Source: Nitrosospira multiformis ATCC 25196
Lineage (GTDB): Bacteria; Pseudomonadota; Gammaproteobacteria; Burkholderiales; Nitrosomonadaceae
Assembly (NCBI RefSeq): GCF_000196355.1
Contig: NC_007616.1
Coordinates: forward strand, 1-17,036
Direction of reading: 5' to 3'
Length of the DNA: 17,036 nucleotides
Numbering within the stretch: the stretch's first letter is position 1; every line of letters begins with the position of its first letter. The notes under the pieces are model-generated. The model was not told where the DNA came from, ran no database searches, and was given only the letters and a program-made list of their open reading frames with translations. The position numbers and the translations under genes are program-made. This document shows, piece by piece, positions 521 through 17,036 of the stretch.

Positions 521-672
521 GGTCTTACATGATAGGTCGTAGACTTTCGTCCATTGGAGCCTATCACCAACCTTACAGAAATAATAAACCCAAAGTACTG
601 TACTTGTCAACCAAAATGAACCGAAATGGTGACAAGGCTAATAATAAATAGAGAGAGAGTAAGAGTATAAAA

Positions 673-1593: not shown

Positions 1594-1652
1594 TCCAAAT
1601 AGGCCTAGGGGATAAGCTCTAAGTACGCAATAAAAAGCTCATCCTGTCCAAT

Positions 1653-2528: not shown

Positions 2529-2841
2529 CGTCTATCGCTTTTAAGAATTTTTCTAGCTGCGCCCGTTTTGCGGGATCGAGCTGGGTGATCCTACGGAAAA
2601 AAACCTGATCAGCATCTGACGGAGTCAGCTCGTGTTTTGCATCATCCAAAAGAAACTCTACAGGAACTCCAAACACCTCCGAAATTTTGGAAATTTTTTC
2701 GGCTGAGGGCCTTACAACGGGCCGGTTTTCCAACTCCCAGATGTAGCTCTTACTTGAACCTGTTTTTTCCGCAAGTTCCTCAAGCGTTAGTTTCAAACGC
2801 TTCCTTTCAGTACGAATTTTCTCCCCTAGCAATGAAGCCAT
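2521..2841 (-). CDS. XRE-family helix-turn-helix transcriptional regulator
   Basis: Translation is MASLLGEKIRTERKRLKLTLEELAEKTGSSKSYIWELENRP, a classic Cro/C1 HTH. I prefer the ATG at 2841 because GGAGGGTTAGGAG lies directly upstream. The track ORF extends to 2898 with no RBS. Confidence 0.8.
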   Translation of the reverse strand: MASLLGEKIRTERKRLKLTLEELAEKTGSSKSYIWELENRPVVRPSAEKISKISEVFGVPVEFLLDDAKHELTPSDADQVFFRRITQLDPAKRAQLEKFLKAIDDE

Positions 2842-2891
2842 CACTCCTAACCCTCCAATAAATAAGTTCAGAGTAGACGTATTTTTTTTAT

Positions 2892-2923
2892 TTGGCAACA
2901 GGAATTCTATATGTTAATATAAT
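2892..2923 (+). promoter_or_regulatory. Candidate sigma70-type promoter for the yjzC-like/DUF3892 cassette, in the divergent intergenic region shared with the XRE gene
   Basis: TTGGCA (2892-2897), a 17-nt spacer, then TAATAT (2915-2920). An overlapping TATAAT sits at 2918-2923. TTGGCAA read on the other strand gives TTGCCA as a possible -35 for the XRE gene. Motif match only. Confidence 0.3.
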
Positions 2924-2991
2924 TTGTAAGTCTATACCGAACTTTTCGGGAAGAGGCGATTCCTTCAAAACCTCTATAAGGAGAAAAAAAT

Positions 2992-3171
2992 ATGGGTATG
3001 AAACCTGGAAGTAGTACTGGTAATGGCGGTGGGATTTTTCAACAGGTAGGTCCTAAAGGAGGCAAGCAGCCTAACTTTGCGACTGTCCCAGATCACAAAC
3101 CCCTCCCCCCTACCACAAAGCCTGGCCACACCTGGGTACCGGTACAAACCACTCCAGATAGCAAGCGATAA
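2992..3171 (+). CDS. Small YjzC-like protein (59 aa), function unknown
   Basis: It falls below the 60-aa cut-off of the ORF track. AAGGAG lies 8 nt upstream of the ATG. Translation is MGMKPGSSTGNGGGIFQQVGPKGGKQPNFATVPDHKPLPPTTKPGHTWVPVQTTPDSKR. The KPG...G.F..VGPKGG...LPPT..PGH.W pattern resembles YjzC-family proteins, recalled from memory. Confidence 0.5.
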   Translation: MGMKPGSSTGNGGGIFQQVGPKGGKQPNFATVPDHKPLPPTTKPGHTWVPVQTTPDSKR

Positions 3172-3205
3172 AAGCTTCTTCCACTTTCGAAAGGAAACTA
3201 ACTAT

Positions 3206-3430
3206 ATGCCTGATGTTCAAGTTACCTGCATTATCAAACCACATCCCCAAAGCCCACACGAATATATTACCCATCTTGGAAATGGCAGGACGTGGTTATG
3301 GACGCGTGAGCAAGTTATTGACAGCATTGATGCGAAAACAAATACGTTCTACGTGCTTGATCCAAGCAATTCCAAGCGGTCTAACGTGGGAGTGGTTCGA
3401 GAAAATGGTAAAGCACCATATTTACGGTGA
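3206..3430 (+). CDS. DUF3892-like protein, 3'-truncated by IS insertion (disrupted gene)
   Basis: ATG at 3206. Translation is MPDVQVTCIIKPHPQSPHEYITHLGNGRTWLWTREQVIDSIDAKTNTFYVLDPSNSKRSNVGVVRENGKAPYLR. The TGA stop at 3428-3430 is supplied by the first three bases of the IS. The track ORF starting at 3077 is an upstream read-through extension. Confidence 0.7.
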   Translation: MPDVQVTCIIKPHPQSPHEYITHLGNGRTWLWTREQVIDSIDAKTNTFYVLDPSNSKRSNVGVVRENGKAPYLR

Positions 3431-3475
3431 CCTGCTATTGATTTTTGTAGCCAGTTTCGAAGTGGGTCTTCCGGT

Positions 3476-4297
3476 TCAAACATTCTGGATTTGCAACCTT
3501 TGCAAGCCTGCCTGGGCTGGAGTTCGGTTGGCGAGCGCAGAATGCGGGCGCTCGTTGTTATAAAACTGCCGCCATTTCTCGATCAATACTTTCGCTTCCT
3601 GCCGTGTGATGAACCATTCGCGGTTGAGGCATTCATCACGCAATTTACCGTTGAAGCTTTCCACGAATCCATTCTGCCAAGGGCTGCCAGGCTTGATAAA
3701 GGCTGGCCCCACGTTATTGTCTCGCAGCCATGTCATTACTGCGGTTGCAGTAAATTCAGCGCCATTGTCCGAGCGAATAAAGGCAGGCTTTCCATAGATA
3801 CGCATCAGCCGTGACAGGGTCAGGATGACATCCTGGTTACGCAGCGATTTGCCGACTTCGATTGCAAGGCACTCACGCGTATGCTCATCCAGCACGCAAA
3901 GCAGCTTTAGCGTCTGCCCATTGGCCAGCCGGTCATGGACGAAATCATAAGTCCAGACACTGTTTGGTTTTGTTGCTCCAGGAAGGCGTATATCCGTCCC
4001 GCAGCGGCGTTTCCTGGGCCTGCGCCTGGGCAAGCTTAGTCCCAGCTTACCCCACAAGCGCCACACACGCCCCATACTCTGATCAGTCATGACAGCAATG
4101 CGCCGATACCCAAAACGGGGATAGCGGCTTGATGCTTCAATTATCCGTGTGGCAACAGCACGATCCTTAACGGGCTGCTTGACCTCATAACTGCCAATAC
4201 GACGGCTTACCCCGACAATTCGACACGCTGATCGCTGCGATAACCCCTTGCCCGTCAAAATTCCAAGCGCTTCGCGTCTGGCTGCCGGGGTTACCAT
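3476..4297 (-). CDS. IS3-family transposase OrfB (DDE/rve integrase domain), expressed as an OrfAB fusion by -1 frameshift
   Basis: 273-aa ORF. Motifs: WTYDFV...[13 protein letters not shown] (first D), IRSDNGAEF (second D), [12 protein letters not shown] (E), and a [10 protein letters not shown] tail. Confidence 0.9.
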
Positions 4298-4557
4298 TTT
4301 TTTGTGGCAATCTCCTTCAAACCCTCGATAGCCAGCATCTGCTCAGCAACAATCTTCTTCAGCTTCGCATTCTCCGACTCCAGATCCTTTAACCGGCGCG
4401 CATCCGATACCGTCATACCTCCAAACTTCGTGCGCCACCGGAAAAATGTCTGCTCCGTAATGTTGTGCTTGCGGCATACATCTCGGATAACCACCCCATC
4501 CGCTTCACCTTCCCTCAGTATCCCAATAATCTGCTCTTCACTGAATCGCTTCTTCAT
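4291..4557 (-). CDS. IS3-family transposase OrfA (HTH)
   Basis: Translation is [16 protein letters not shown]...[34 protein letters not shown] (HTH plus leucine zipper). GGAGG lies 5 nt upstream of the ATG at 4557. The track ORF start at 4593 has no RBS. Confidence 0.85.
4297..4303 (-). other. Programmed -1 ribosomal frameshift heptamer A AAA AAA joining orfA to orfB
   Basis: Minus-strand ACA AAA AAA TGG TAA in the orfA frame. A -1 slip reads ATG GTA ACC..., which is MVTPAARRE, the start of OrfB. Confidence 0.75.
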
Positions 4558-4626
4558 TTTCGCCTCCATGTCAAAATTAACATGAAGACTCACTTAGAGG
4601 GTGGTCACAAAATTCTTAGCAGATCA

Positions 4627-4690
4627 ACGGACCTATGCAGACGGTTACTGGAATAACAATTTGTTATCGCTAGACCAGTGCCCAATTTAA
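4627..4690 (+). pseudogene. Displaced 3' end of the DUF3892 gene (duplicated ACGG plus 19 codons and stop)
   Basis: After removing the IS and one ACGG copy, the frame continues CGG ACC TAT GCA GAC GGT TAC TGG AAT AAC AAT TTG TTA TCG CTA GAC CAG TGC CCA ATT TAA. This reads ...YLRTYADGYWNNNLLSLDQCPI*, a typical DUF3892 C-terminus. Confidence 0.75.
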
Positions 4691-5107
4691 GCAATACCTA
4701 AACAACCAAAATCACCCGTCGTGTATGACCATGACTGGTGATGCGCTTTTCATGGTCTGGTCTCCTTTTAGGGCTGGGTGCTGTGCTCATGCACATGCAC
4801 CGATGCCCGTCGGCGAGACCGGGGGTAGAAGAGCGCAAGGGCGGACGGCAGGGAGGGGGATCACCCGGCCTGCACAAGCGTAGTGCGGAAGGCCGGGGAC
4901 ACCCTGCCGGCAGGCGCAGCTTTACCCTTGTGCGACGCGAGGGGCAGCGCCCCTTAGAAAGCTTTTAAGAAAACAGAAACAGCGTGGGCCGCAGGCAGAC
5001 GTTGCCATTGATATTGCAAAAGGGATCGTTACCGGATGGCCGGGACTACAGGCCCGGGACGAAGCGTCTAGAGCCCGGCCCGCTGACAGAATGTGAGCGG
5101 GCTGCCC

Positions 5108-6079
5108 CTATTTAGATGCTTTGCTATTTTCAGTCTGTTGGTACGGACCAAGAAATCGTATGCCATTGAAGTGAATCAGATGCGAAGGAGCATCTGCAAC
5201 CCATACTTCGGTCTCCCATGCGATCTCACCTAAATAACGACCCATTATGGAACGATTTGGAAAAGCAGTTACGTAGACAAGACCAGCCTTCGAACCGGCA
5301 AACAACTTGGACAGCTCTGCATGTCGCTTGCCATCGACAGGACCATGGCTGGTTACGGACTCGACGAGCAACAACCAATTGCGCTCAGTGAAGTGCAAAA
5401 CCACATCCGGCATCTTGCCATGCGAGTCCACGCTGACCCCTAACTCAGCAAGAAGTGGGGCATCAAAATACCCCCACTTCTCCCCTGTATCACCGGCATA
5501 GACAAGCACGCTACCAGGTGCAAAGCGCGGTGCGAAGTCCTCAATAATTTTCCGGATGAGCTCGCTGTGTTCACCAGGACTGAGCGTAATTTTCTTACCT
5601 GGCGCAATCTCAACCGGAATCCTATTTTGCTCTCTCTCCATTGCATACTTCTCGGCCAATGACTGTCGCTTTGAAAGATAGGTCATTAGATTGTCATGCC
5701 ACATATCGGTACCAAAGCTCCGAAGCAAAACGAGTGCCTCTGGCTCGATCTGATAAACCGCTTTTGGGCTGTTGACGGGCCGTAAAGGATTGTCTGGGTT
5801 GTAAAGCGCGATTCCCGCATCTACAAACTGGTGCATAGTCTGTCTTCTTACAGTCTCACGGGTGTTAGGAGCATAGTCCTTTCTATAGTGCTCACGCGCC
5901 CAATCCATGATCGGCGTAATACCCATAAGTGGGTTTTGTACCTCATTCCAGGACTTTTCTGGTGTTAAGTTGAGCAAGGCTAGAAGGCACAGGGCTGAGC
6001 GTTCATTTTGTTGAGCTCGGGGAAGGCCTAAGGCAAGGATGATGTTTTGAGCATCTTCGAGGTGGTTACCATTCGTCAT
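5108..6079 (-). CDS. Type II restriction endonuclease, BsuBI/PstI family
   Basis: Family-typical blocks: QQNERSALCLLAL, YAPNTRETVRRQTMHQF, NPDNPLRPVNSPK, MPDVVLHF...WLLLVESVTSHGPVDGKRHAEL, IAWETEVWVA, HLIHFNGIRFLGPY. The ATG at 6079 overlaps the methylase TGA (ATGA). The track start at 6085 is a TTG. Confidence 0.8.
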   Translation of the reverse strand: MTNGNHLEDAQNIILALGLPRAQQNERSALCLLALLNLTPEKSWNEVQNPLMGITPIMDWAREHYRKDYAPNTRETVRRQTMHQFVDAGIALYNPDNPLRPVNSPKAVYQIEPEALVLLRSFGTDMWHDNLMTYLSKRQSLAEKYAMEREQNRIPVEIAPGKKITLSPGEHSELIRKIIEDFAPRFAPGSVLVYAGDTGEKWGYFDAPLLAELGVSVDSHGKMPDVVLHFTERNWLLLVESVTSHGPVDGKRHAELSKLFAGSKAGLVYVTAFPNRSIMGRYLGEIAWETEVWVADAPSHLIHFNGIRFLGPYQQTENSKASK

Positions 6080-7590
6080 GAACAAAGCTTTTCTAGTTGT
6101 TCATCAATCTGATCCTGCGAAAGCTCAAAGCGGCCAGCAGCCCACTTCCCTAGAGAAACGAGAGCTGCCCGACTTGGATACTTCATGACCCTGAGGTCAG
6201 TTGCATTGACTTGAGTGTGTCCATTGAAGCGACGGAAGTATTCATCAACGGCAGTTGTATTAAGGAAGACAGACAGGCCTCGTGCCAATTCTGCTGGCAA
6301 TCCTTGGCGCCCCTTGTGAAAAACGTTGAGATGGTTTTCAAAGCCGATAGCCGTAACGTCACCAAAGGTGGATGGATCGACCATACTTGCGACAATACGA
6401 CGCCGCTCCTCTTTCGAGGAAAAACGACGAACAACGCAATAGAACCCATTTGGGTACAACCATCGCTCGGTGTCTTTGTTTAGTGCAATCGCATTGGGTT
6501 TCCTGAGTCCTTGTTTAGGCCACTCAGTACCTGTGCCGGAGAAATGTCCAGGGTAGAGAAGTGGAACAGAACCAGCTTCTGGCATATCAAGTAGGTAATC
6601 CTTCATGCGGAAGTCAACCACTGGACCAGTCGATACCTCGACTCCGATATCCGCTAGGCTATAGCGAACAGCGGGAGACAATTCGATTGCACTCAGGCCA
6701 ATCGATGTAGGAATGTGAATGAAGCGCTCGGGATCGTCAGGAAAGACGATACGTTCGAAGTTATGTGTGTTGGTTTCGAGGTCTGAAAACGTATCATCGG
6801 TCGATGTTGAGATAGTAACTGTGCTTTGCTTGCCTCCACGTTCTAACAGGAGAATGACGTTCTCCTGCAAAACATCATCCTCCTTAAAAGCTTTACTTCT
6901 TGATGAGAACAGATGCATATGGCGCAGAGCCGCACGGCTTAAAATGAAATCTCGAAAAGGTTTGTAATAGGGGCCATTGCAAAAGCTGCGAGGAATGATC
7001 GCTACTACTTGGCCACCAGCTGCCATCAAAGCAACAGTGAGAGCGACGAAGGCCGAGTAAAGGTTAACCACCTCAATGCCGACTGACCTCAGGGCATGGC
7101 GGTGTGAGGAGGCGCTGTTAATTTTCCTGTAAGGCGGATTGAGGATTGCGTGCGTGAAACCTGGGTAATCCTGCAGACTTTTGCTGGTAACCAGCTTAAT
7201 AAAATCTCCCTTTATCACGCGATAAGAAAAAGACTGATCAGCTGCGTACCTATGCAGTGCCGCTTCAAGATGAACACGTAACTTTGGGTCAATTTCATAG
7301 GCTGTGGCCTCGACTTGGTCGAAGGTAAACTTCCCTGCTGTCCAGCGGTCAAGGAAGGCGCATGACAGAGCCCCCACCCCCGCTCCAGCATCAAGAAGCC
7401 GACAAGTCTGCAGGGTTGACGGAGGAAACAGGCTCGCCATAAACCGAGCAACCGAGGATGGGGTCATAAATTGGCCTAACTCAGACTTGTGCTTCTGGCT
7501 TATCTTCGGCGCGATAGAGCGGCGTAGAGTATCAGCGTGGTCAAGCACTTGCAAAGTTGCCGGGACTTCGAGTGTATCAGTGTAGGCCAT
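6076..7590 (-). CDS. N6-adenine DNA methyltransferase, Eco57I/PstI-BsuBI-type (gamma-class motif order)
   Basis: 504 aa. The AdoMet motif LLDAGAGVGAL precedes the catalytic ILNPPYRKI (NPPY). The size and the partner gene match M.PstI/M.BsuBI-type enzymes. Confidence 0.85.
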   Translation of the reverse strand: MAYTDTLEVPATLQVLDHADTLRRSIAPKISQKHKSELGQFMTPSSVARFMASLFPPSTLQTCRLLDAGAGVGALSCAFLDRWTAGKFTFDQVEATAYEIDPKLRVHLEAALHRYAADQSFSYRVIKGDFIKLVTSKSLQDYPGFTHAILNPPYRKINSASSHRHALRSVGIEVVNLYSAFVALTVALMAAGGQVVAIIPRSFCNGPYYKPFRDFILSRAALRHMHLFSSRSKAFKEDDVLQENVILLLERGGKQSTVTISTSTDDTFSDLETNTHNFERIVFPDDPERFIHIPTSIGLSAIELSPAVRYSLADIGVEVSTGPVVDFRMKDYLLDMPEAGSVPLLYPGHFSGTGTEWPKQGLRKPNAIALNKDTERWLYPNGFYCVVRRFSSKEERRRIVASMVDPSTFGDVTAIGFENHLNVFHKGRQGLPAELARGLSVFLNTTAVDEYFRRFNGHTQVNATDLRVMKYPSRAALVSLGKWAAGRFELSQDQIDEQLEKLCS

Positions 7591-7747
7591 TGGGTCTCGA
7601 CAGGCAGGTGTTCAGCGTTCAGCTCTTGGGCTGATAGCTTTGAAGTAGCATATTTGAGGCATAGGGTCAAAACGACACTAGCTAGCGTAATAGCTTATGT
7701 TCGGTTGACAAAAACGTTAACAGAACCTGGATGATTCTTAAAAGCTA

Positions 7748-8062
7748 TTACTCGCCCCGATAGGGCTCGGGAACCCCATATTTTGCGCAAAGATCATTGA
7801 TTGCTTCCCCCAAAAGTTCCTTGGTTAGTTTTCCCTCGTTATTCGGATGAGCTTGTACGAGCAGTAATGCGCGGCGTACCTGGGGAGAAAAATGCGCCCC
7901 TATCATCACCGTTTTATCAGCGGCCTTTTTATTAGCTACAGGAGTAACAGGCTTAGCCTCAGACTGATGAGGGCTTACATGCTGAATTGGTTCCGGCTGC
8001 TTTTGCACCTGACCGGCTGCCATGGCTTTAAGCCCGGCGGCTAAGGGACTAGGCTTTTTCAT
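7748..8062 (-). CDS. Small partition partner of ParA (ParG/RHH-like centromere-binding protein, putative)
   Basis: 104-aa ORF immediately downstream of parA, overlapping it by 14 nt, with AAGGA 8 nt upstream. It has a basic, disordered N-terminus and a structured C-terminal 50 aa (VMIGAHFSPQVRRALLLVQAH...LLGEAINDLCAKYG). The assignment rests mainly on position. Confidence 0.5.
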   Translation of the reverse strand: MKKPSPLAAGLKAMAAGQVQKQPEPIQHVSPHQSEAKPVTPVANKKAADKTVMIGAHFSPQVRRALLLVQAHPNNEGKLTKELLGEAINDLCAKYGVPEPYRGE

Positions 8063-8699
8063 GATGTATATCCTTATATTTGTATAGCGCTATATTTATA
8101 TATTTATATAGCTCACTGAGTTCAAGAGCTGCTTTACCGCCGGGATCGTATTCCAGGGCAGTTTGACCCAGATTGGTGGCATCTCCATAAGCTGTTCTTT
8201 GATAGAGTACGACGGGACAAACCTTAAGCCCCATTCCTTCTATCGCTTCCATCGTATCTAGATGGCGTCTTCCTTGCACAGGGGCGGCATTTATCACGAC
8301 CAGAGCAGTGGGATTACCAGCAAGGGTTAGGATGTCTTTAACATTTAACAGCGTTTCAATGTCGAAGAGCTGAGGCCGGATGGGTAGCAGAACAATATCT
8401 GCAACTTTTGCGGCCTCTATAGTGGCTTCGGTGCTTTTTCCTGCTGTGTCGATTATGACCAACTCAGCGCCTTGCTCTTTTGCCCCGGTTAATACGTTAC
8501 GTAGGCGTGAAACTTGGCAAGATACTACTGCCGGATGTTCAGATTCTCTCCGATCTCCCCAGTTAGCCGCTGTAGTTTGGGGATCAAGATCGATTACGGC
8601 AACTGACTTGCCGTCCAGAACACCTGCAACAGCAAGCCCTAATGCGGTTGTTGTTTTCCCGTTACCGCCCTTTTGTCCGATGATGGCTAAGGTTTTCAT
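8049..8699 (-). CDS. parA: ParA/Soj-family partition ATPase (small, type Ib-like)
   Basis: Translation begins MKTLAIIGQKGGNGKTTTALGLA, with the deviant Walker A KGGxGKT. It also has VIDLDPQ and a Walker B-like LVIIDTAG. Confidence 0.9.
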   Translation of the reverse strand: MKTLAIIGQKGGNGKTTTALGLAVAGVLDGKSVAVIDLDPQTTAANWGDRRESEHPAVVSCQVSRLRNVLTGAKEQGAELVIIDTAGKSTEATIEAAKVADIVLLPIRPQLFDIETLLNVKDILTLAGNPTALVVINAAPVQGRRHLDTMEAIEGMGLKVCPVVLYQRTAYGDATNLGQTALEYDPGGKAALELSELYKYINIALYKYKDIHHEKA

Positions 8700-8706
8700 T
8701 ATATAG

Positions 8707-8794
8707 TCCTATATTTGTATAGTCCTATCCGAATATATTCCTATATAAGTATATTTCGATAGGGCTAGATTTATATATTACGATAGGAATATAT
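8707..8794. repeat. AT-rich TCCTAT/ATAGGA repeat array upstream of parA (candidate par operator/centromere)
   Basis: TCCTAT recurs at 8707, 8723 and 8739 with a 16-bp period. Inverted ATAGG(G/A) copies sit at 8759 and 8783. A 12-bp inverted repeat pairs ATATATTCCTAT (8733-8744) with ATAGGAATATAT (8783-8794). Confidence 0.45.
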
Positions 8795-8865
8795 CAGAGT
8801 TCCTTGAATGTCTATCCTGTTAAACGCAAAAAATCCACGGAATCGCAATCTCGACCACGTTTAAA

Positions 8866-8930
8866 TCACCCTTGTTTAATATCCTAGCGGGTGAATTTGC
8901 CCGGAGGGCAAAGAGGGGCGGCAATGAGCC
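8866..8930 (+). repeat. Left arm of a long-range inverted repeat pair (partner at 12635-12687)
   Basis: TCACCCTTGTTTAATATCCTAGCGGG...GAGGGGCGGCAATGAGCC. The first 26 nt match the partner at 23/26 and the last 18 nt at 18/18. This arm carries an extra internal hairpin, TTTGCCC-gga-GGGCAAA. Confidence 0.8.
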
Positions 8931-8983
8931 CCTTGGATGATGTTTTGTGAGCGGAGCGAACTCATAGTCTATTGTCATAACTT

Positions 8984-8992
8984 GTTATCCAC
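8984..8992 (+). promoter_or_regulatory. Consensus DnaA box TTATCCACA. A second 8/9 box, TCATCCACA, lies at 9088-9096.
   Basis: Exact 9-mer match, located between the AT-rich region and the iterons. This is the expected architecture of an iteron-type oriV. Confidence 0.5.
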
Positions 8993-9098
8993 AGTCGCGA
9001 GTTTCATCCCTGTGTGTGTTAAATATAGAGTTAAGTAGTGTTAAGGGCGGGAAAACTCTTGTAACTATTTGCAATAGCTCAGCAATTTCATCCACAGC

Positions 9099-9250
9099 GT
9101 CAACAGAACCACGAAAAACTGTCAGCACAACCACGAAAAACCGTCAACGAAACCACGAAAAGTCCCTTGCGTCATTGAAACCCCGAAGCTATGATGGGCG
9201 TCAACGAAACCACGAATCGATTATGTCTGTCAACGAAACCACGAATATTA
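9099..9250 (+). repeat. oriV iterons: five 22-bp direct repeats with core GTCAaCgaAACCACGAA, plus one degenerate copy
   Basis: Copies: 9099 GTCAACAGAACCACGAAAAACT; 9121 GTCAGCACAACCACGAAAAACC; 9143 GTCAACGAAACCACGAAAAGTC; 9200 GTCAACGAAACCACGAATCGAT; 9229 GTCAACGAAACCACGAATATTA. The degenerate copy at 9171 is GTCATTGAAACCCCGAAGCT. Confidence 0.8.
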
Positions 9251-10275
9251 AAAAGAATGAGCGATCGGTCTTGTTGCCGGAACGCCATCCCAATCACGAG
9301 CTGTTCATCTGCGATGTGCTTGAGGCCATCCCCAAGGATGACTTGGCAAGCATGGAACACCCCGTATTCTCCCTGGCAACCAAACCAGATACACGGACCC
9401 TGATTTATGAGCACAGGGATGTAAAAATCCAGATCACGCCAAGCGTTAAGGGGTTGGCGACGATTTTCGATAAGGATTTATTGATTTTCTGCATCTCCCA
9501 AATGATCGCAAAAAAGAATAGGGGAGAGCCTCTATCGCAAAATGTACGCCTCCATGCATACGATCTTTTGATATGGACGAACCGGGAAACAAGCGGCGAT
9601 GCTTACCGGCGCCTCATAGAAGCATTTGAGCGGCTACGCGGGACCACAATCGTGACAAACATCAAAGCAGACGGTGAGGAGATAACCACAGGTTTTGGCC
9701 TTATCGATAGTTTCAAGGTTGTTCGTCATACCGCCACCGGGCGCATGAGTGAGCTGGAAGTCCGGATCTCGGACTGGATGTTTAAAATCATTCAGGGTTC
9801 ACAGGTGCTGACGCTGAGCCGGGATTATTTCCGGCTTAGAAAACCCATCGAACGGCGGATTTACGAGATAGCACGTAAGCATTGCGGGGAGCAGGACGAA
9901 TGGCGGATTTCTATCGAACTGCTCCAGAAAAAAACTGGAGCCAGCAGTCACGAACGGGCGTTTAAAGCCATGGTGCGGGAGCTGGTCAAATGCGACCATT
10001 TGCCCGACTACAGCGTCACATTGGAAGACGATATGGTAATTTTTTATAACCGGGCGGGCTTATCGGAGAAAATTCCTCTTACCGCGTTTCCTCAGCTCAA
10101 TGCTGAAACTTACAACGATGCTCGTACCGTGGCCCCAGGTTATGACGTCTATTATCTCGAACAAGAATGGCGGGACATGTGGGTTGATACCGGAATGCCG
10201 CTACTCCACAATCCCGACAAAGCTTTTATAGCTTTTTGCAAATCCCGGGCAAAACGTCGCCCAATGGGTCGGTAA
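9223..10275 (+). CDS. repA: Plasmid replication initiator RepA (replication initiator protein A type)
   Basis: 350 aa from the first ATG. Typical blocks: LLPERHPNHELFICDVLEAIPKDDLASMEHPVFSLATKPD and LSRDYFRLRKPIERRIYEIARKHCG. The track ORF start at 9016 is a non-ATG extension that merely translates the iterons. Confidence 0.85.
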   Translation: MSVNETTNIKKNERSVLLPERHPNHELFICDVLEAIPKDDLASMEHPVFSLATKPDTRTLIYEHRDVKIQITPSVKGLATIFDKDLLIFCISQMIAKKNRGEPLSQNVRLHAYDLLIWTNRETSGDAYRRLIEAFERLRGTTIVTNIKADGEEITTGFGLIDSFKVVRHTATGRMSELEVRISDWMFKIIQGSQVLTLSRDYFRLRKPIERRIYEIARKHCGEQDEWRISIELLQKKTGASSHERAFKAMVRELVKCDHLPDYSVTLEDDMVIFYNRAGLSEKIPLTAFPQLNAETYNDARTVAPGYDVYYLEQEWRDMWVDTGMPLLHNPDKAFIAFCKSRAKRRPMGR

Positions 10276-10305
10276 TTCTCTTTTTAAGATCGAAGGGGTG
10301 CTGCT

Positions 10306-11979
10306 TTATCTGCCGCGATCTCGATATGGCTCAGGACGAGCTTGTCCATGCGCCAATTTCTCTTCCGTAGAATTATTAGACTCGTAGCTCTCGAACAGAC
10401 TTGCCCGGTTGTTGTACCTATCTGCAAGACTGACGCTTTTATCCTCTTTTTGCCTCTCCGCTTGAGTTGCACGAAGCTTCTTGTAGGAATCCCAAGCGGT
10501 CCGGCGGTCGGCATTTAAAGCCGCCCATTCTTTCCGCAATTCGCCTGTCTCTTCTGCCTGCTGCCTTTTTAAATCCTGCCGCTCCGTCTTGTGACGAGCT
10601 GCAAGCAAGGTGCGAGCTTGCTTATCGGTTTCCTTAGCCGCTTCTATTTTCTGGACGGCATGTTTCTTGGCAAGATCGCGAGCCTCTGCATACTTAGTGC
10701 GCAACTCATCCAGTTCCGTGTTTTGCTTGGCCCAGAGCCTTTGGAAAGCAGGCAAATTACGTTCGTCCAGCTTCTTGAAGAAAGCTTCTTTTTCGCTGTT
10801 CAAGCGCTTTGCGAACATTGCAGCACGCGCATCTTTAGCCACAAGCGCAGTAAAAAACCGGGATAGATGGCCACGATGATGGTTCCCGTGTTCGGAGAGG
10901 GGAGTCTTGATCGTCGCTTCAAGCGTAGCCAGAAGTACGGCCCATCCCCCGGTGCGGTTCATTTTATAAAATTCCCGCCTTTTTTCTTTCTGTGTTGCCA
11001 TAAAGAAGGAGACTTCCGGCACATTCTCTTCTTTAAGACGGGCTCTTAAGGCGCGCATTTGGTCTTCGTGCCTTTTCTTTAATTTGGCCCTGTCGGCCTG
11101 GTATTTCTGCCAGGAATACTCGCCCGCTTTTGAAGCCTTGTTAAAACCCTGCCGAATTTTGAACGCCTGGCACTGCTTATCCCAAAGAGCGGCCCGTTCG
11201 TTTGCCTGGCGAGCTTTAATTTCCTCCCATTGAGCCGAATGGCGCACCGCGTTATCGCGGCCCTTCCTGGCCAGATTTTTGATCCGCTCGGCGAACTCCG
11301 CCTTAATATCCAGGTAACGTTTACTCTTAGGATGGGTTGCTCCTGCCGCCGCCTCCCAATCCGCACGAGCCTTGCTGTTGGCCGTGCCTTTGTGCTGCCG
11401 CGCTTCTTCCGCCATACGACGGTATTCAGCCTTCTTTTCCGGGTCTTTCTCGTATTTCGCGGCACGCTCGGGGCTGTGATGTTCCATGCCCCGTGCCTTG
11501 TCGTATTCATGGCCCCAGGAGTGCAGGATTTTATGGTCGTCCTTGGGATTGTGCGAGATTCCTGTCACCGGATTAACGCGGTTGACGATGATATGCAAAT
11601 GCATGTGCGCCTTGTCGCCGTGCGCGGCAAACACCGCTTCATGCTCCCCATATCCAAGCTTTTCCAGTATGGCAGTCCCGGCCTCCATCATTTCGGCCTG
11701 GGTGGGCTTCTCGCCTGGCACCCAGGACAGGGAGAGGTGATAAACCGGCGGGCCGGGTTTGCGGCCGGTCGCCTTGATGCCTGCCGCTTCTTTCAGCTCG
11801 GCGGCATGCTGCGCGGTATAGGCCATGACCTTGGCCGCCTTCTCCGGGTCGTCCGTGCGAAGGTTGCGCGTTTCCGTAAACAGAACCCGCTCGGCTGTTT
11901 TGGCTCCGTCCGGGTCGTGAATGATGTAGGCCACCGCCCCCTTGAAGCTGCGGCCCTTTTTCGCGGCGTTCGGCGTCAT
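10306..11979 (-). CDS. mobA: Relaxase/mobilisation nuclease (VirD2/TraI-RP4-like N-terminal domain) with a long K/E/A-rich C-terminal region
   Basis: The N-terminus FKGAVAYIIHD provides a candidate catalytic Tyr. The His triad is HGDKAHMHLHIIVNRVNP (HxDxxxxHxH). The start overlaps the mobC stop (ATGA). Confidence 0.85.
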   Translation of the reverse strand: MTPNAAKKGRSFKGAVAYIIHDPDGAKTAERVLFTETRNLRTDDPEKAAKVMAYTAQHAAELKEAAGIKATGRKPGPPVYHLSLSWVPGEKPTQAEMMEAGTAILEKLGYGEHEAVFAAHGDKAHMHLHIIVNRVNPVTGISHNPKDDHKILHSWGHEYDKARGMEHHSPERAAKYEKDPEKKAEYRRMAEEARQHKGTANSKARADWEAAAGATHPKSKRYLDIKAEFAERIKNLARKGRDNAVRHSAQWEEIKARQANERAALWDKQCQAFKIRQGFNKASKAGEYSWQKYQADRAKLKKRHEDQMRALRARLKEENVPEVSFFMATQKEKRREFYKMNRTGGWAVLLATLEATIKTPLSEHGNHHRGHLSRFFTALVAKDARAAMFAKRLNSEKEAFFKKLDERNLPAFQRLWAKQNTELDELRTKYAEARDLAKKHAVQKIEAAKETDKQARTLLAARHKTERQDLKRQQAEETGELRKEWAALNADRRTAWDSYKKLRATQAERQKEDKSVSLADRYNNRASLFESYESNNSTEEKLAHGQARPEPYRDRGR

Positions 11980-12308
11980 TCCACGTCCTGCAATCGGTCC
12001 AGCAACTGATTGAGCCGGGCAAGAGTCTCGCTCAGCTCGTGCGGGCTATGGCCGAGGCCACTGTTCAGGGCACGGGCAATCTGGTTGAGATTGACGCCCG
12101 CCCGGTTCACAGCCAGCACCAGGGCAGGGTCAGCCCGGCGCGGAGCAGCGGCAAGCTTGCCCCCAAGGGCGCGGCGGCGGGCGTAGTCGGTGGGGGTGAG
12201 GCCCGAAGCGGCAGCGCGGGCCTCAATGGTGGCCCGCTCGTCTGGGAGCAGGCGAAGATTCAGCCGCTCGCTCCGGGACTCCGGTTGCTGTTTCCTGGGT
12301 CGCGCCAT
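11976..12308 (-). CDS. mobC: MobC-family relaxosome accessory protein (RHH)
   Basis: Translation from the ATG at 12308 is MARPRKQQPESRSERLNLRLLPDERATIEARAAASGLTPTDYARRRALG...AVNRAGVNLNQIARALN. The 69 codons further upstream in the track ORF are GC-rich read-through. Confidence 0.8.
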   Translation of the reverse strand: MARPRKQQPESRSERLNLRLLPDERATIEARAAASGLTPTDYARRRALGGKLAAAPRRADPALVLAVNRAGVNLNQIARALNSGLGHSPHELSETLARLNQLLDRLQDVE

Positions 12309-12382
12309 AAGGACTGGACTGGATAAGTTATTCAGGACGGTACGCAATGGTGACGCAATTAGCCAAATCCGGCTTTTCCGGT

Positions 12383-12728
12383 GCCTCCTCGTTTCGGGGA
12401 GGAGGGGGAATACCGAATGGCCAGGCAAGGCCGTTGCAGGGGGTCCAAAGGGGGAGGGAATGCTCCCCCTTGCAAGCGTTTTTGGGTACCAAAAACATAG
12501 CTTGCTACCCTGCACCTACAATTGTACCACTCAACTCAGGCGCTAGGTCAACTGCACCAAAGGGAGTTATGCACGAGGTTTTTCAGGCGCGACGCGTCGG
12601 GAGTAGCTGACGCCCTTCGGGCGTCAGTCGGAGAGGCTCATTGCCGCCCCTCCGACACCTCCCTGCTAGGATACAAAACAAGGGTGAGCGGCAGTTGATC
12701 GCAGGCGAAGCGGCCTGTATCCTGATAC
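12383..12728. other. Candidate oriT region upstream of mobC (several inverted repeats plus nick-core-like motifs). The exact nic site is not determinable.
   Basis: Hairpins: 12383-12405 (CCTCCTC/GAGGAGG); 12448-12471 (AAGGGGGAG/CTCCCCCTT); 12478-12496 (GTTTTTGG/CCAAAAAC); 12607-12627 (CTGACGCCC-ttc-GGGCGTCAG). There is also a 10-bp palindrome CGACGCGTCG at 12590-12599 and GTATCCTGATAC at 12717-12728, which contains TATCCTG. Confidence 0.3.
12635..12687 (-). repeat. Right arm of the long-range inverted repeat pair (partner at 8866-8930)
   Basis: The reverse complement reads TCACCCTTGTTTTGTATCCTAGCAGGGAGGTGTCGGAGGGGCGGCAATGAGCC. Confidence 0.8.
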
Positions 12729-12777
12729 GGCGGTACAGCAGGGATGCGATGACCGCACAAGGGTGAGAAATCACCGC

Positions 12778-12811
12778 AAAGGCCAGCCCTCAAAAGCTGG
12801 CCTTTGTTTTT
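12778..12811 (+). terminator. Rho-independent terminator-like hairpin, plus-strand oriented
   Basis: AAAGGCCAGC-cctcaaaa-GCTGGCCTTT, a 10-bp stem, followed by GTTTTT. On the minus strand no T-run follows the stem. Confidence 0.5.
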
Positions 12812-12869
12812 ACCTAGACAATCCGGCTCCCGTTACAATCTGTACTCGCTCATCTTTTCAGGGGGGAGT

Positions 12870-13343
12870 ATGGCAACTACCGATAGCGGAGACTTGCCAA
12901 AAGGCCAGGCAAATGAAGGAAATCGAGGGAAACCATCGGAACCGGGCCAATATAATCCGCATCAAGGCAGTGACCTGGCTGTTGCCCAGACTCTTCTTCC
13001 AACAGGCCCGACGGCAACCCATCGAAATGACGAACAAAAATCAAAAATACCGGAGGGAGTCCGAAAGGACGGCCAAAACCTGACCCTTGAAATGAGAACT
13101 CCTATGGGGTCGGATGTCCGAAGGCAAGCCGCATACTCACAAGCTGCGAAGGATTACAATGCCGCCAACAAAAAACGGGTAGAAAAATATTTCGGTGACA
13201 GTAATAAAGGACCCCTGGTAACATCAAGAGATATAAAGGATAAAAGCGTTATTGAACGACGGGAGCCAACTAGGGGATCGCTTTCAAACGAGCTATCCAA
13301 AGCGAGCGGTTTCGAAACAGGGAGTAAGGATTTAGAAAGATAG
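12870..13343 (+). CDS. Hypothetical protein, 157 aa, highly polar and probably disordered, with no recognisable domain
   Basis: ATG at 12870, preceded by AGGGGGGAG. It is the first gene of the plus-strand operon. The sequence MATTDSGDLPKGQANEGNRGKPSEPGQ... is rich in K/E/G/S/N/Q. Its coding status is supported only by length, RBS and operon context. Confidence 0.55.
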   Translation: MATTDSGDLPKGQANEGNRGKPSEPGQYNPHQGSDLAVAQTLLPTGPTATHRNDEQKSKIPEGVRKDGQNLTLEMRTPMGSDVRRQAAYSQAAKDYNAANKKRVEKYFGDSNKGPLVTSRDIKDKSVIERREPTRGSLSNELSKASGFETGSKDLER

Positions 13344-13349
13344 CCCGCC

Positions 13350-13661
13350 ATGAAATACAGCCTTCCTCACGATCAAATGCATTCCAGGGTCATCACTGCC
13401 CCTGACGGTATAGATCATTTAATAACCATGGGCGGTTGGTACTGGAATTCTCTCGACTGGATGCATAACGAAACCGATTGGAAAAATATCGATTTTATTG
13501 AGCTGGCTTGGAAAACTGCCAAGCAAATGGAAAACGACGGAACAATGGAAAACCCGGGCAATTTACCGGCGGAATTCCAATTGGCTTTCAAATATCACAT
13601 ATGGTTCCGCATGAAGGATTTGATTAACAAAGAAGATGGCATAGTTAACGATAATATTTAA
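13350..13661 (+). CDS. Hypothetical protein, 103 aa, Trp-rich
   Basis: ATG ORF lying 6 nt after the previous stop. The segment HLITMGGWYWNSLDWMHNETDW faintly recalls the ExxFWxxL block of RHH_4-type proteins. That resemblance is weak. Confidence 0.55.
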   Translation: MKYSLPHDQMHSRVITAPDGIDHLITMGGWYWNSLDWMHNETDWKNIDFIELAWKTAKQMENDGTMENPGNLPAEFQLAFKYHIWFRMKDLINKEDGIVNDNI

Positions 13662-13677
13662 TCTGCCGGGACATTAA

Positions 13678-15663
13678 GTGGGTAACGACATTCTGGCTTT
13701 GGGAGAAAGCCAGCCAAAATACAATCGCCGAGCATTGGCCTCGGCCCAATTTATTCCCCAGGAATATCTAGACCGACAGGGATACCGCAAAGGCGATTTC
13801 TGGCTTGGCCGAACCCTCAACGGACGGCCTTTCGGTTGGAACGAGGAAATGAATCTGCTGACCTGTGCGGGACCAGGGGCAGGGAAGGGCGTTTCGACAG
13901 TCGTACCGAACCTGCTGGAATTTCCTGGGAGCGCAGTGGTAGTGGATCCAAAGGGAGAGCTGGCCAGCATGACTGCCGCTTTCCGTCGCGACGTGCTTGG
14001 ACAGAAGGTCATCGTCCTGGATCCTGCGCGAACTGCTAAGGTAAGCGAGGATCTGCGCGGCACTTACAACCCTTTCGACGAACTGGATGCGGACGATCCC
14101 TTTGTTACGACCGCCGCCCAGGTTATTGCCTCCGGGATCGTCGTTCCCAATCCCAAGGCAAAAGAACCGTTCTGGGACGACAACGCTCTCGATTTCATTC
14201 AGTCGTGCATCCTCTATATGGTGCGGCATTATCCGCCTAATTTACGCACCCTTATGAAGCTGCGGGAGACGGTTTCTATGGGGGACAGCGACCTCTTCGA
14301 TGCATATGTACGGCGCAAACAAGAAGAGGATCCAGATTTTATGGGATCCGAAAGTGATGCCTTCGGGCTGTTCCTGAAAGAAATGTTTAACACCCCGGAC
14401 TTTGGCGGCGTGATACGTGAGACTGCCGCCAAAATCGGGCGAATGGGCGAAAACACGAAAGGCAGTGTACTTTCTACAGCGGCCACACATCTGGACTTCG
14501 TAAAATCCCCGGAACTTTGGGACGTGCTGCAATCGAACCCGGACCCGTCTCGAACCTTCCGGCTGCGGGAGCTGAGACGTAATGACCGGCCCCTCACGGT
14601 CTATCTATGCCTTCCTGTAGACATGATCCCGCGTCAAGGAAGATGGTTTCGGATGATCATATCCCGCATCATCCAATCCATCGAACGCAGCGAATTCGAT
14701 AAAAAACGAGATCACCCTGTTTTGATGATGATCGACGAGTTTTTTCAGCTCGGTCCGATTCCTTCTATTACTAACACCCTCACATATTCACGAAGCTTTG
14801 GGCTGCGGCTGTGGCTAATTGTGCAAGATTTGAATCAGCTTAAAACCAATTACCCGGACGCCTGGGAAACCATTCTCGGTTCCTGCGGAATAAAGCAGTT
14901 TTTCGGAGTAAACGATCTCGTTACCGCTAAATATGTTTCGGAATTGATTGGGGAAGAAGAGATAGATATACCCTCGATCTCGCTTACCAAAACCTCTTCC
15001 GGGACGGAGAGCAGAAACTCCTCGCAAACGCACAGCCAAGGGATGACCAGTACCGCCGGAAATAACTGGTCAAGCAGTACAGGAAGGTCTGTATCCTTTT
15101 CGCGCACGAATAGCACAAACCATAACATTACGACCGGGCGCGGGATTTCCAATAATCAGGCTGCCAGCAGCGGGGTAAGCGAAAGTTGGGGAAGCGGTGC
15201 CAATAACGGGGAAACTATTACAAATAGTCAACAAACTTCCCAGAACTCGGGACGCTCTGCGCACGCAACTACGGGACAAAATTACGGCGTTAGCAGCTCC
15301 CTTGGCCAGTCCTCCTCCCTATCTGGCTCGGCAGGCCAAAGCGCCTCTTCTGGCATGACGTTTGGCTCAAGTATCTCGGACACCCGGGGCGGATCCATCT
15401 CGACATCAGAAAGCCGAAATATCTCCAACACGGCGGGAGAAGGTTCCTCTGTTTCAACCGGGATAAATTACGCTTTTTCTGTTTCCAAACAGAAAAGACG
15501 GCTCCTGCGCCCCGAAGATGTTCTGGTGAGCTTCACCAAAAAGAACCTGGTGCAACTTACGCATATTCGAGATCAGGGGGGCATGATGCTATTCCGTACC
15601 CCATTCTATGCCGATCCGTATTTCCGATTCCTTCTGACGGAAAAAACAAAAAATGACACATAA
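13678..15663 (+). CDS. Type IV coupling protein (VirD4/TraG/TraD family ATPase) lacking the N-terminal transmembrane domain, with a large Ser-rich insertion
   Basis: GTG start. Walker A is CAGPGAGKGVSTVVPNLL, followed by SAVVVDPKGE. Walker B is HPVLMMIDEFFQLG. It also has SRSFGLRLWLIVQDLNQLKTNY and a C-terminal RRLLRPEDV...FRTPFYADPYF. Only about 20 aa precede the soluble-domain homology, with no hydrophobic helix. Confidence 0.85.
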   Translation: MGNDILALGESQPKYNRRALASAQFIPQEYLDRQGYRKGDFWLGRTLNGRPFGWNEEMNLLTCAGPGAGKGVSTVVPNLLEFPGSAVVVDPKGELASMTAAFRRDVLGQKVIVLDPARTAKVSEDLRGTYNPFDELDADDPFVTTAAQVIASGIVVPNPKAKEPFWDDNALDFIQSCILYMVRHYPPNLRTLMKLRETVSMGDSDLFDAYVRRKQEEDPDFMGSESDAFGLFLKEMFNTPDFGGVIRETAAKIGRMGENTKGSVLSTAATHLDFVKSPELWDVLQSNPDPSRTFRLRELRRNDRPLTVYLCLPVDMIPRQGRWFRMIISRIIQSIERSEFDKKRDHPVLMMIDEFFQLGPIPSITNTLTYSRSFGLRLWLIVQDLNQLKTNYPDAWETILGSCGIKQFFGVNDLVTAKYVSELIGEEEIDIPSISLTKTSSGTESRNSSQTHSQGMTSTAGNNWSSSTGRSVSFSRTNSTNHNITTGRGISNNQAASSGVSESWGSGANNGETITNSQQTSQNSGRSAHATTGQNYGVSSSLGQSSSLSGSAGQSASSGMTFGSSISDTRGGSISTSESRNISNTAGEGSSVSTGINYAFSVSKQKRRLLRPEDVLVSFTKKNLVQLTHIRDQGGMMLFRTPFYADPYFRFLLTEKTKNDT

Positions 15664-16426
15664 CCCTCCACCAGAAGGGGCCAGATGGGATATCCCGGAC
15701 TGGAGCCCCGTTCAGGAAGCCGATTCTGATAAGCACAAGTCCTATCTTGACCAGCTAGACGAGTTACAGGACCTGCGCCGACAGCTCGCTGACATGAAGA
15801 ACCGTCCCCCCGAGCAACCTGCGCAACCTGAGCAAAAGGACAATTTCGAAACAAGAAGCGCCGCAATCAAATCTCTTATCATCAAGCTTGACACCATAGC
15901 ACGCCGTAATCCGCCTGCTATCCTAGACGATGAAGATATAAATGGCAGGTTTGATGCTATCGAGGCATTCTTGAAGAAATACGGTCTTCTCAATATCGGA
16001 ACCCAACGATCTTACAATTCTCCATTTCTCACATTAGGGCAAGCTGCCCGATCAGATCTGGAAATAAATCTGGCCGAGCTTGAGGTAGCACGCACTCATT
16101 TCCTTCGATGGCACGGCTCGATGGCAAAAAATCTGCCCCCTCCGCCAAAAACTGAACCCAGCGGTATTATTAACCGCATGATTGAGCTATATCACTATCC
16201 AAGAAAAGAGGATCCCGAGATTGCGCATATCAAAGCCTACTTAGGGACAGAGTATATTAAATTTAATCCCCAGGGAGTGGCATCTGAAACCGACAAGAAT
16301 TCATTTAAAACAATAGCTTTAAAAAAACTCCCATTTGAGATGCGGGTATTGAAATACTGTTTGGAGCTTTGGGTTATTGCTCTAATTGGAATGCTAATAG
16401 GCGGTTTAATACGCCTCTTCATATGA
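15653..16426 (+). CDS. Hypothetical tail-anchored membrane protein, 257 aa
   Basis: The ATG overlaps the coupling-protein stop by 11 nt. The N-terminus is Pro/Gln/Glu-rich with a predicted coiled segment (LDQLDELQDLRRQLADMK). A single hydrophobic helix sits at the extreme C-terminus (LELWVIALIGMLIGGLIRLFI). Confidence 0.6.
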   Translation: MTHNPPPEGARWDIPDWSPVQEADSDKHKSYLDQLDELQDLRRQLADMKNRPPEQPAQPEQKDNFETRSAAIKSLIIKLDTIARRNPPAILDDEDINGRFDAIEAFLKKYGLLNIGTQRSYNSPFLTLGQAARSDLEINLAELEVARTHFLRWHGSMAKNLPPPPKTEPSGIINRMIELYHYPRKEDPEIAHIKAYLGTEYIKFNPQGVASETDKNSFKTIALKKLPFEMRVLKYCLELWVIALIGMLIGGLIRLFI

Positions 16427-16441
16427 TAGAGACAAAAAAAA

Positions 16442-16705
16442 TTGAACGTATTTTCGGTCATTGCAACCACTCTTAAAGTAGCGAGATTTCTCACCGTTAA
16501 GGCGGGCTTATGCGAAAACTGCAATATTCGTAAACCGATATGTCAATGCAAAAATTGCGACGCTAATATTTGCGAAAAATGTGTCGAATGGATTTATTGG
16601 AGCAGGCGTCAGTATAACGAGAGGTCGCGGAAAGCATATGGACCCAATGCCCACCAAACTGATTATATAGAGTGTCCAATATGCAACAAACCATGGCAAG
16701 AATAA
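16442..16705 (+). CDS. Putative small Cys-rich (zinc-ribbon/RING-like) protein, 87 aa, with a TTG start
   Basis: Nine Cys residues arranged CxxC...CxC..C....CxxC...(30 aa)...CxxC: CENC, CQC, C, CEKC, CPIC. There is no in-frame ATG anywhere in the ORF and only a weak RBS, so the coding call is tentative. Confidence 0.4.
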   Translation: MNVFSVIATTLKVARFLTVKAGLCENCNIRKPICQCKNCDANICEKCVEWIYWSRRQYNERSRKAYGPNAHQTDYIECPICNKPWQE

Positions 16706-16722
16706 TGGAGAGGACGCTACCC

Positions 16723-17036
16723 CTAAAAGCTATATAGCTTGTTTGCCTTCAGCGCACGACGCAGGGTGCCTCGATCAACGTTCAATAGCCCTGCCATACC
16801 AGAAACCGTTTCCCGCCCCTCCCGCACCATCTGCGCTGCATGATTGATCTGTTCTTGGCTCAGCTTCCCGGGACGACCTACATGCTTTCCCCGCCGCCTG
16901 GCCGCCTGCATCCCTGCCTTTGAACGCTCCGATATCAATGACCGCTCGAACTCGGCCAGAGCGCCCATGATGTGAAAAACCAGTTTCCCTCCGGCAGTCG
17001 TTGTGTCGATCCCGTCTGAGAGGCTTTCAAACCCAG
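16723..17036 (-). CDS. Serine recombinase, C-terminal part (E-helix plus HTH DNA-binding domain); the 5' part lies at 256..1
   Basis: Minus-strand reading from the window end gives (2 leftover nt) GFESLSDGIDTTTAGGKLVFHIMGALAEFERSLISERSKAGMQAARRRGKHVGRPGKLSQEQINHAAQMVREGRETVSGMAGLLNVDRGTLRRALKANKLYSF*. Confidence 0.9.
   Translation of the reverse strand, partial: GFESLSDGIDTTTAGGKLVFHIMGALAEFERSLISERSKAGMQAARRRGKHVGRPGKLSQEQINHAAQMVREGRETVSGMAGLLNVDRGTLRRALKANKLYSF

Follow-up and report, generated by a model that had tools for sequence, protein, structure and literature searches.

In most type IV coupling proteins (T4CPs) an N-terminal transmembrane (TM) domain is present (PMC7431656), and in canonical members it is required, since the truncated forms TrwBΔN70 and MobBΔTMD are inactive (PMC7434980, PMC7431656). 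TrwB of plasmid R388 (1E9R/1E9S), the structural archetype of these proteins, is a coupling protein found beside a relaxase, and transfer depends on its two-helix TM domain. MobB belongs to the mobilizable plasmid CloDF13 (MOBC1), which carries its own coupling protein and borrows the secretion channel (PMC7431656); its TM domain, of ~150 amino acids (aa) and three helices, is essential for mobilisation. Reviews describe T4CPs on mobilizable plasmids as rare (PMC7431656) and recognise TM-less T4CPs only via pIP501, where the TM-less T4CP of the TraJ/TraI pair is said to work with an adjacently encoded small membrane protein (PMC7434980). In Cagβ (HP0524) of the Helicobacter pylori Cag type IV secretion system (T4SS), residues 631-658 form two long anti-parallel β-strands directed away from the nucleotide-binding domain (NBD), and in the crystal hexamer the six hairpins make a 12-stranded β-barrel, a membrane-proximal layer that is coaxial with the central channel (PMC9886983). 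A 2025 review describes the docking of coupling proteins to type IV secretion channels as not yet defined (PMC12857230). We analyzed a stretch of 17,036 bp from Nitrosospira multiformis ATCC 25196 (contig NC_007616.1, positions 1 to 17,036; here called the window), which is a complete circular mobilizable plasmid and which encodes, at 13678..15663 on the forward strand, a VirD4/TraG-type T4CP of 661 aa without a TM segment. The best overall explanation of our results, to which we assign a probability of roughly 0.55, is that this anchorless T4CP carries giant β-hairpins that assemble into a polar barrel and is anchored in trans by the product of the gene downstream.

The gene starts with GTG at 13678, and its product is a coupling protein of the VirD4/TraG type. 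Pfam PF02534 (T4SS-DNA_transf) covers residues 37-453 with 205.8 bits (1.5e-60; cut-off 20.1), and PF12696 (TraG-D_C, 91.5 bits) and PF10412 (TrwB_AAD_bind, 65.2 bits) are both over their cut-offs. The AlphaFold2 model has a mean predicted local distance difference test (pLDDT) score of 79.5, with values above 90 for residues 20-438 and 596-655, and a Foldseek search with this model retrieved Cagβ (8DOL) at 1.5e-20, TrwB at 1e-14 and DotL at 5e-10. The Pfam score and the matches to Cagβ and TrwB bear out the identification as a coupling ATPase in a first-pass annotation that had been made from the letters of the window alone. Cagβ is the best structural match and shares the same three-layer plan, although sequence identity is only ~14%; TrwB has the same fold of NBD and all-alpha domain (TM-score to the target 0.67). 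The Walker A motif GPGAGKG (residues 65-71, 13870..13890, forward strand) includes G69 and K70, both invariant in 109 homologues, and Walker B, LMMIDEF (residues 349-355, 14722..14742, forward strand; D353 and E354), aligns to D550/E551 of Cagβ, with E354 invariant. The all-alpha domain extends over approximately residues 143-300 (14104..14577, forward strand; helices H143-154 to H296-300), limits that are our own reading of the AlphaFold2 secondary structure within an overall fold that matches TrwB and Cagβ. By analogy with its family, the protein would act as a hexameric ATPase that couples a relaxosome to a T4SS. It is outside every curated named T4CP group in NCBIfam: the named models (CD1115 family, TraG, IncP TraG, Ti TraG, VirD4 and F TraD) all fail to reach their cut-offs, the best being NF045973 at 164.8 against a cut-off of 250, with the others far under theirs.

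The feature that sets this protein apart is a tract of 171 aa (residues 433-603, nt 14974-15486) containing 50 Ser, 23 Gly, 21 Thr and 16 Asn, with a single Lys, a single Asp, and no Pro or Cys; an earlier hand count of about 50 Ser in 171 residues agrees with the computed figure. This tract had been taken for low-complexity sequence, but it follows a strict dipeptide register. Ser, Thr, Gly or Asn occupy 82 of the 86 odd positions (95%) versus 33% of the even positions, and the register is unbroken over all 171 residues. The lag-1 autocorrelation of a small-polar indicator within the tract is -0.38, a value as low as which was found in none of 10,000 shuffles, and the family consensus has a like pattern, GxSxSxTx. 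Tandem Repeats Finder detected no DNA tandem repeat in 14900-15560, as had been supposed from the letters; because no repeat was found and hundreds of independent sequences contain the tract, an assembly artefact or DNA tandem repeat is ruled out. A match to the NF033849 "serine-rich protein" model and matches in the PDB to binary toxin, L29 and pyridoxal-kinase entries had E-values that were not significant and were treated as compositional.

On account of this strict register, together with equal arms, cross-arm complementarity and a position homologous to that of the Cagβ hairpin, the tract reads as one giant β-hairpin with two antiparallel arms rather than as a disordered linker. The hairpin would span residues 426-608 (14953..15501, forward strand), with base strands at 426-438 and 596-608, the alternating tract at 433-603, arms of ~85-88 residues each, and a tip near residue 518 (nt ~15229). 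Among 70 homologue tracts of 82-266 aa, 32 have no register shift and the remaining 38 have exactly one, located at 0.48±0.04 of the tract length; Gly, Pro, Asp and Asn abound in the local sequences at the shift (e.g. TGPQ, DPGS, GGGG). An independent set of 77 tracts of at least 100 aa, taken from representatives of 50%-identity clusters, gave 27 tracts without a shift and 50 with one, at 0.47±0.05. A register that shifts either not at all or once in mid-tract points to a single hairpin, in which the arms are equal and the tip loop has an odd or even number of residues.

Pairing between the two arms was scored by matching each position, numbered from the start of the tract, with the equally numbered position counted back from its end, and by counting the pairs that were hydrophobic on both sides or opposite in charge. 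Complementarity has a sharp peak at the symmetric offset, with a score of 360 versus ~100 elsewhere and a maximum of 220 in 200 shuffles. The signal is also present in the inner pairs when 15-20 residues at each base are left out (210 versus 60-100), and in the independent set it reaches 322 versus a shuffle maximum of 160. In an alignment of the ~100-aa length class the indels lie mostly at the tip, and one homologue (P0062) shows a gap of 6 residues in both arms, the two gaps mirroring each other in position. The AlphaFold2 strands of the window protein (426-438, 467-479 and 491-507 in one arm; 529-545, 557-569 and 596-608 in the other) are mirror images about residue 518, which is the centre of the tract, and the two base strands are confidently predicted (pLDDT >90). 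A model of a homologue with a shorter hairpin (P0033) places strands at 433-457 and 507-531 with the same symmetry; its alignment was too shallow (mean pLDDT 58), and the strand symmetry is the only usable part of that model. Register, equal arms and antiparallel complementarity are thus directly observed.

The first-pass annotation had suggested that the tract might serve as a flexible tether, as a target of glycosylation or phosphorylation, or as a platform for substrate recruitment. In that explanation the tract would be intrinsically disordered and its composition alone would matter, which is consistent with a composition typical of disordered regions, with pLDDT values below 50 across residues 440-594 and with a tract length that is highly variable among relatives. 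However, composition-only models do not predict a dipeptide register that is unbroken over 171 residues, and they leave unpredicted the restriction of the register shift to mid-tract, the mirrored indels and the antiparallel complementarity of the arms; the plasmid, moreover, has no glycosyltransferase or kinase gene. Given the register, the equal arms and the complementarity, we consider a disordered tether or platform quite improbable.

The position of the tract also argues for a hairpin. In a profile alignment the tract falls between "...GKYTR" of Cagβ and the invariant Arg of "RFLMTPDEL", such that in both proteins the element is bounded by a GxxxR segment and the invariant Arg of R.L..P(D/E)E. 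Residues 631-658 of Cagβ (28 residues) occupy the position of residues 426-608 of the window protein (183 residues), an elongation of ~6.5-fold. The Cagβ numbering was verified from the Walker A (239-PTRSGK-244) and Walker B (D550/E551) motifs given for that protein, and the orientation of the hairpin is likewise taken from the Cagβ paper (PMC9886983). On this alignment the tract is positionally homologous to the Cagβ hairpin. A large expansion of a short Ser-rich segment had already been proposed, and it is upheld by the 28 residues of Cagβ and by the 20-aa insert of the shortest relatives. Direct alignment by sequence of the tract-deleted C-terminus to solved structures yielded nothing useful. 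Cagβ transports a protein effector, whereas the window gene is linked to a relaxase.

Long alternating hairpins that make a narrow, long oligomeric β-barrel are also known from the stems of pore-forming toxins (anthrax protective antigen, CdtB and iota Ib), in which small hydroxyl residues line the lumen. The family profile gave weak matches to CdtB/Ib over the tract at E 0.24, which are compositional and do not amount to significant homology. The toxin stems have a hydrophobic membrane-spanning tip, whereas the window tract has no such tip.

The second distinguishing feature is the missing membrane anchor. The highest 19-residue Kyte-Doolittle mean (KD19) is 1.27 in the whole protein and -0.27 ahead of Walker A, whereas in the TM-bearing relatives recovered in the same search it lies at 1.8-3.1, with the Walker A motif at 116-225. 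An upstream start or a frameshift that would restore a TM domain is ruled out by three observations: an in-frame TAA at 13675-13677, directly 5' of the GTG, makes extension of the open reading frame (ORF) impossible; both upstream ORFs are hydrophilic, with a hydrophobic segment in neither; and the N-terminus, MxNDL...RRxLA, is common to the homologues. The earlier remarks that the protein has no membrane anchor, with Walker A at about residue 65, and that no upstream ORF supplies a membrane segment were therefore correct for the T4CP in cis. For the system as a whole the first of these remarks fails, because a downstream single-pass membrane protein had been overlooked. The T4CP is a natural "ΔTM" form that starts at about the point where canonical T4CPs pass into their soluble domain, and in this it differs from TrwB, from MobB and from Cagβ, which has three predicted N-terminal TM helices. 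Residues 3-6 of the window protein, NDIL (13678-13700; consensus [DN]D[LI]), have about the spacing of D181-D182-L183-F184 in Cagβ, which plugs the cavity between neighbouring barrel strands (PMC9886983). By spacing only, and not by a tool-made alignment, the polypeptide may begin exactly at a Cagβ-like plug.

Absence of a TM domain could alternatively mark a decaying or non-functional remnant that has lost this domain and gained low-complexity sequence. Canonical T4CPs need the domain, as the inactive TrwBΔN70 and MobBΔTMD indicate (PMC7434980, PMC7431656), and the plasmid is without a mating channel of its own. Decay is nevertheless hardly credible here: the catalytic motifs and ~57 positions do not vary among homologues with as little as 30% identity, at least 124 representatives of 50%-identity clusters, belonging to several phyla, retain the architecture, and the operon structure with the relaxase is conserved.

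Membrane attachment is likely to be supplied by the gene immediately downstream (15653..16426, forward strand), which overlaps the T4CP stop by 11 nt and encodes a protein of 257 aa. This partner carries PPPEGARWDIPDW at residues 5-17 (nt 15665-15703), with PPEGARWDIPDW as the conserved N-terminal motif, and ends in a TM helix at ~235-257 (nt 16355-16423), where KD19 has its maximum of 2.4 at residue 239. A gene overlapping the T4CP stop is present in nine homologue loci, with products of 198-738 aa and no Pfam match in any of these products for which gene calls are on record. Across 13 loci of the clade, the motif P[PR]EG[ASP]RW was found in 11 and a hydrophobic TM helix in 11, and the partner proteins are unrelated to one another outside the N-terminal motif. 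Because a conserved N-terminal peptide is joined to a fast-evolving membrane protein that is translationally coupled to the T4CP, we read the partner as a trans-acting anchor or adaptor, and binding to the T4CP is predicted. Hairpin length and the position of the partner TM helix showed no correlation evident by eye in 9 loci.

Full-length homologues of the partner number only 3 in 5.8 billion proteins, from which no family profile could be built, and Pfam and NCBIfam gave no meaningful match for the partner or for the two ORFs upstream of the T4CP. The TraJ/TraI pair of pIP501 offers a precedent in architecture, and the window partner is without detectable homology to any named family. In both systems the T4CP has no TM domain, and the window analogue of the pIP501 membrane protein would be the translationally coupled single-pass protein; pIP501 differs in being a conjugative plasmid of Gram-positive bacteria that encodes a T4SS itself, and no giant hairpin is described for TraJ. 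At two homologue loci, L006 and L093, the downstream partners have no hydrophobic helix and a degenerate motif (IPSDGARY and IPKSGSRK, respectively), and they have MDSYHE in common. The T4CPs of this subgroup may be tethered differently or not at all.

Both features are widely distributed. A HMMER scan of 1.84 billion cluster representatives returned 14,406 relatives at E≤1e-3 and 1,685 at E≤1e-30. Among the best 140 new representatives, both flanks of the insert were recognisable in 125, and a TM segment is missing from 124 of these; the 125 are representatives of 50%-identity clusters, and the insert was measured with hidden Markov models of the flanking profiles. Insert length covers a continuous range of 20-270 aa in 159 relatives, and 16-266 aa with a median of 126 in the non-redundant set. 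The tract is carried by ~90 clusters at 90% identity and by dozens of 50%-identity representatives. The long tract is a family trait and not the single-gene oddity that had been hinted at, since close homologues commonly carry an equally long one. In a genome scan such genes were found in Rhodobacteraceae, Sphingomonadales, Planctomycetota, Acidobacteriota, Nitrospinaceae and others, and a scan of metagenome contigs for close relatives gave only 5 loci. Anchorless relatives with a canonical 20-aa hairpin exist, as do a few TM-bearing relatives with tracts of 34-85 aa; loss of the anchor and possession of a long hairpin can thus be separated. No hairpin-expanded or serine-rich T4CP was found described in the literature searched. 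Many giant-hairpin relatives (representatives of 800-1340 aa) also have C-terminal extensions of 250-700 aa, which the window protein does not have. Plasmid p1BIR of Labrenzia sp. PHM005 (L001 133-4005) encodes a relative of 1,290 aa with such an extension, and another relative (P0081) has a Sel1/TPR annotation (PF08238).

From these features we infer barrel assembly, the side of the strands that faces the lumen, partner binding and a biological role. The T4CP would receive the relaxase-DNA complex of its own plasmid and pass it into a type IV secretion channel that another element provides. Each hairpin would project from the NBD at the membrane-proximal pole, and on hexamerisation the six hairpins would form a polar β-barrel tube ~200 Å long (~100-350 Å over the family), lengths that follow by rough geometry from an axial rise of ~2.4-2.8 Å per residue. 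The small polar residue at every second position would suit the lining of a narrow lumen, and every second residue may be small and uncharged because the lumen of a 12-stranded barrel is narrow. Since the tube would start at the membrane-proximal pole, we propose that the tube, in place of the TM stalk, connects the motor to the borrowed secretion machinery. Through its N-terminal PPEGxRW motif the downstream membrane protein would bind the T4CP and keep it attached to the membrane. A more specific proposal, which we regard as possible but doubtful, is that the hairpins make a continuous 12-stranded conduit lined with Ser, Thr, Gly and Asn and coaxial with the channel, acting as a portable docking adaptor for hijacking a foreign T4SS while the partner provides the tether via PPEGxRW. 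Under this proposal the anchorless T4CP would plug into the cytoplasmic ATPase and the inner-membrane complex of the foreign system.

The hairpins may also be real and yet build no coaxial barrel, forming instead six separate ribbons or a cross-β "polar zipper" that serves self-association, polar clustering or sticking to a partner. Alternating strands rich in Ser, Thr, Gly and Asn are typical of steric-zipper sequences too, and wide length variation would be easier for an adhesive element than for a conduit. Moreover, the TrwB hairpins are reported as shorter than those of Cagβ and oriented otherwise (PMC9886983), and barrel formation may for that reason not be universal. However, in the only T4CP hexamer with long hairpins the homologous element is a 12-stranded barrel (PMC9886983), the intramolecular pairing of equal arms fits a hairpin that pairs with neighbouring hairpins, and an isolated two-stranded ribbon with arms of ~85 residues would probably not be stable. 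Ribbons or a zipper in place of a barrel accordingly seem unlikely to us.

Several observations nonetheless weigh against a trans-anchored polar barrel, beginning with the size and orientation of the TrwB hairpins. The continuous variation in hairpin length argues against a fixed structural distance, and the low pLDDT over 440-594 means that AlphaFold2 provides no confident three-dimensional model of the tract. Taken alone, the window protein has weak cross-arm complementarity (7 pairs, equalled by 54 of 2000 shuffles), and the related sequences that enter the cross-arm statistics are not independent observations. The tip is polar in the window protein, with no obvious docking motif, and the partner is without a TM helix in 2 of the 13 loci.

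A large clade, extending over Proteobacteria, Planctomycetota, Acidobacteriota and other phyla, dispenses with a TM domain otherwise held essential and hugely elongates the one element that builds the membrane-proximal barrel in Cagβ. If the long polar barrel is true, a hexameric DNA translocase would carry a β-barrel of unusual length. This barrel would offer a direct structural handle on the interface between T4CP and channel, and it would explain how mobilizable plasmids with their own T4CP engage unrelated channels. For annotators there is also a caution, as Ser-rich "low-complexity" tracts can be hidden regular β-structures.

Two conserved small ORFs lie upstream of the T4CP gene on the same strand. 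The nearer one (13350..13661, 103 aa) is 61% identical to the ORF in the same position of the homologue locus L003 and carries GWYWNSLDWMH; ORFs of 102-107 aa are found immediately 5' of the T4CP in four other homologue loci. The farther one (12870..13343, ~157 aa from the ATG at 12870) contains a block LTLEM..P.G...RR and matches the same-position ORFs of L003 and L004 by BLASTP at 3e-10 and 7e-9, respectively. Their conserved position and sequence suggest that the two may encode unrecognised accessory proteins of the relaxosome or the T4CP.

The replicon is circular, since a serine resolvase of ~190 aa (MKIGYARVSTDDQ...) on the minus strand is restored to full length only when the ends of the window are joined (16723-17036 plus 1-~260), the linear window containing only a fragment of 81 aa (16723-16968). 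Its gene content includes RepA (RPA family), ParA and a ribbon-helix-helix protein, and the transfer module consists of a NikA/MobC-type accessory protein, a MobA/VirD2-type relaxase and the T4CP. The relaxosome accessory protein (11976..12515, minus strand) was identified by PF21983 (4.3e-16) and PF05713. The MOBP-type relaxase (10306..11979, minus strand) has a MobA/VirD2 nuclease domain (PF03432, 1.6e-25) and is of the TraI/MobA(P) type, the nearest NCBIfam model being TraI/MobA(P), NF041893, at 8.4e-30 and under its cut-off; the relaxase of CloDF13, by contrast, is of the MOBC type. Neither VirB4 nor any other mating-channel or mating-pair gene is present among the genes of the 17-kb circle. 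The presence of a relaxase module and a T4CP without a mating channel is what identifies a mobilizable plasmid equipped with a coupling protein of its own.

The T4CP operon and the genes for the relaxase and the NikA/MobC-type protein are arranged divergently, and between them lies a candidate origin of transfer (12607..12727), proposed by analogy with MOBP-type systems. It contains the inverted repeats CTGACGCCC/GGGCGTCAG (12607-12627) and GTCGGAGAGGC/GCCCCTCCGAC (12627-12656), followed by a nick-like core, ATCCTG at 12719, which we take to resemble the RP4-type nick core. Relaxase and NikA-like genes flank the T4CP operon in 6 of 7 homologue loci examined; for the locus L090, neither gene was inside the sequence fetched. 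A megablast search of PLSDB found no near-identical plasmid.

The remaining cargo comprises a PstI-like restriction-modification pair, an IS3-family transposase, an Abi_2 protein and a pair of M78-peptidase and helix-turn-helix (HTH) genes. A BsuBI/PstI-type restriction endonuclease adjoins an Eco57I-like methyltransferase at 5108-7590 on the minus strand, and at the equivalent place homologous plasmids carry differing restriction-modification or defence cargo (NotI, EcoRII, SMODS/SLATT, Abi). The IS3-family element (3476-4593, minus strand) has an HTH_Tnp_1 ORF (4291-4593) and an rve ORF (3476-4297) that overlap by 7 nt, which looks like the usual programmed-frameshift arrangement. An Abi_2-like protein is encoded at 673-1593 on the plus strand (24.6 bits, slightly under the Pfam cut-off of 25.6) and is adjoined by an M78 peptidase (ImmA/IrrE-like) and Xre-type HTH pair at 1653-2898 on the minus strand; together, these genes may form a small defence or regulatory island.

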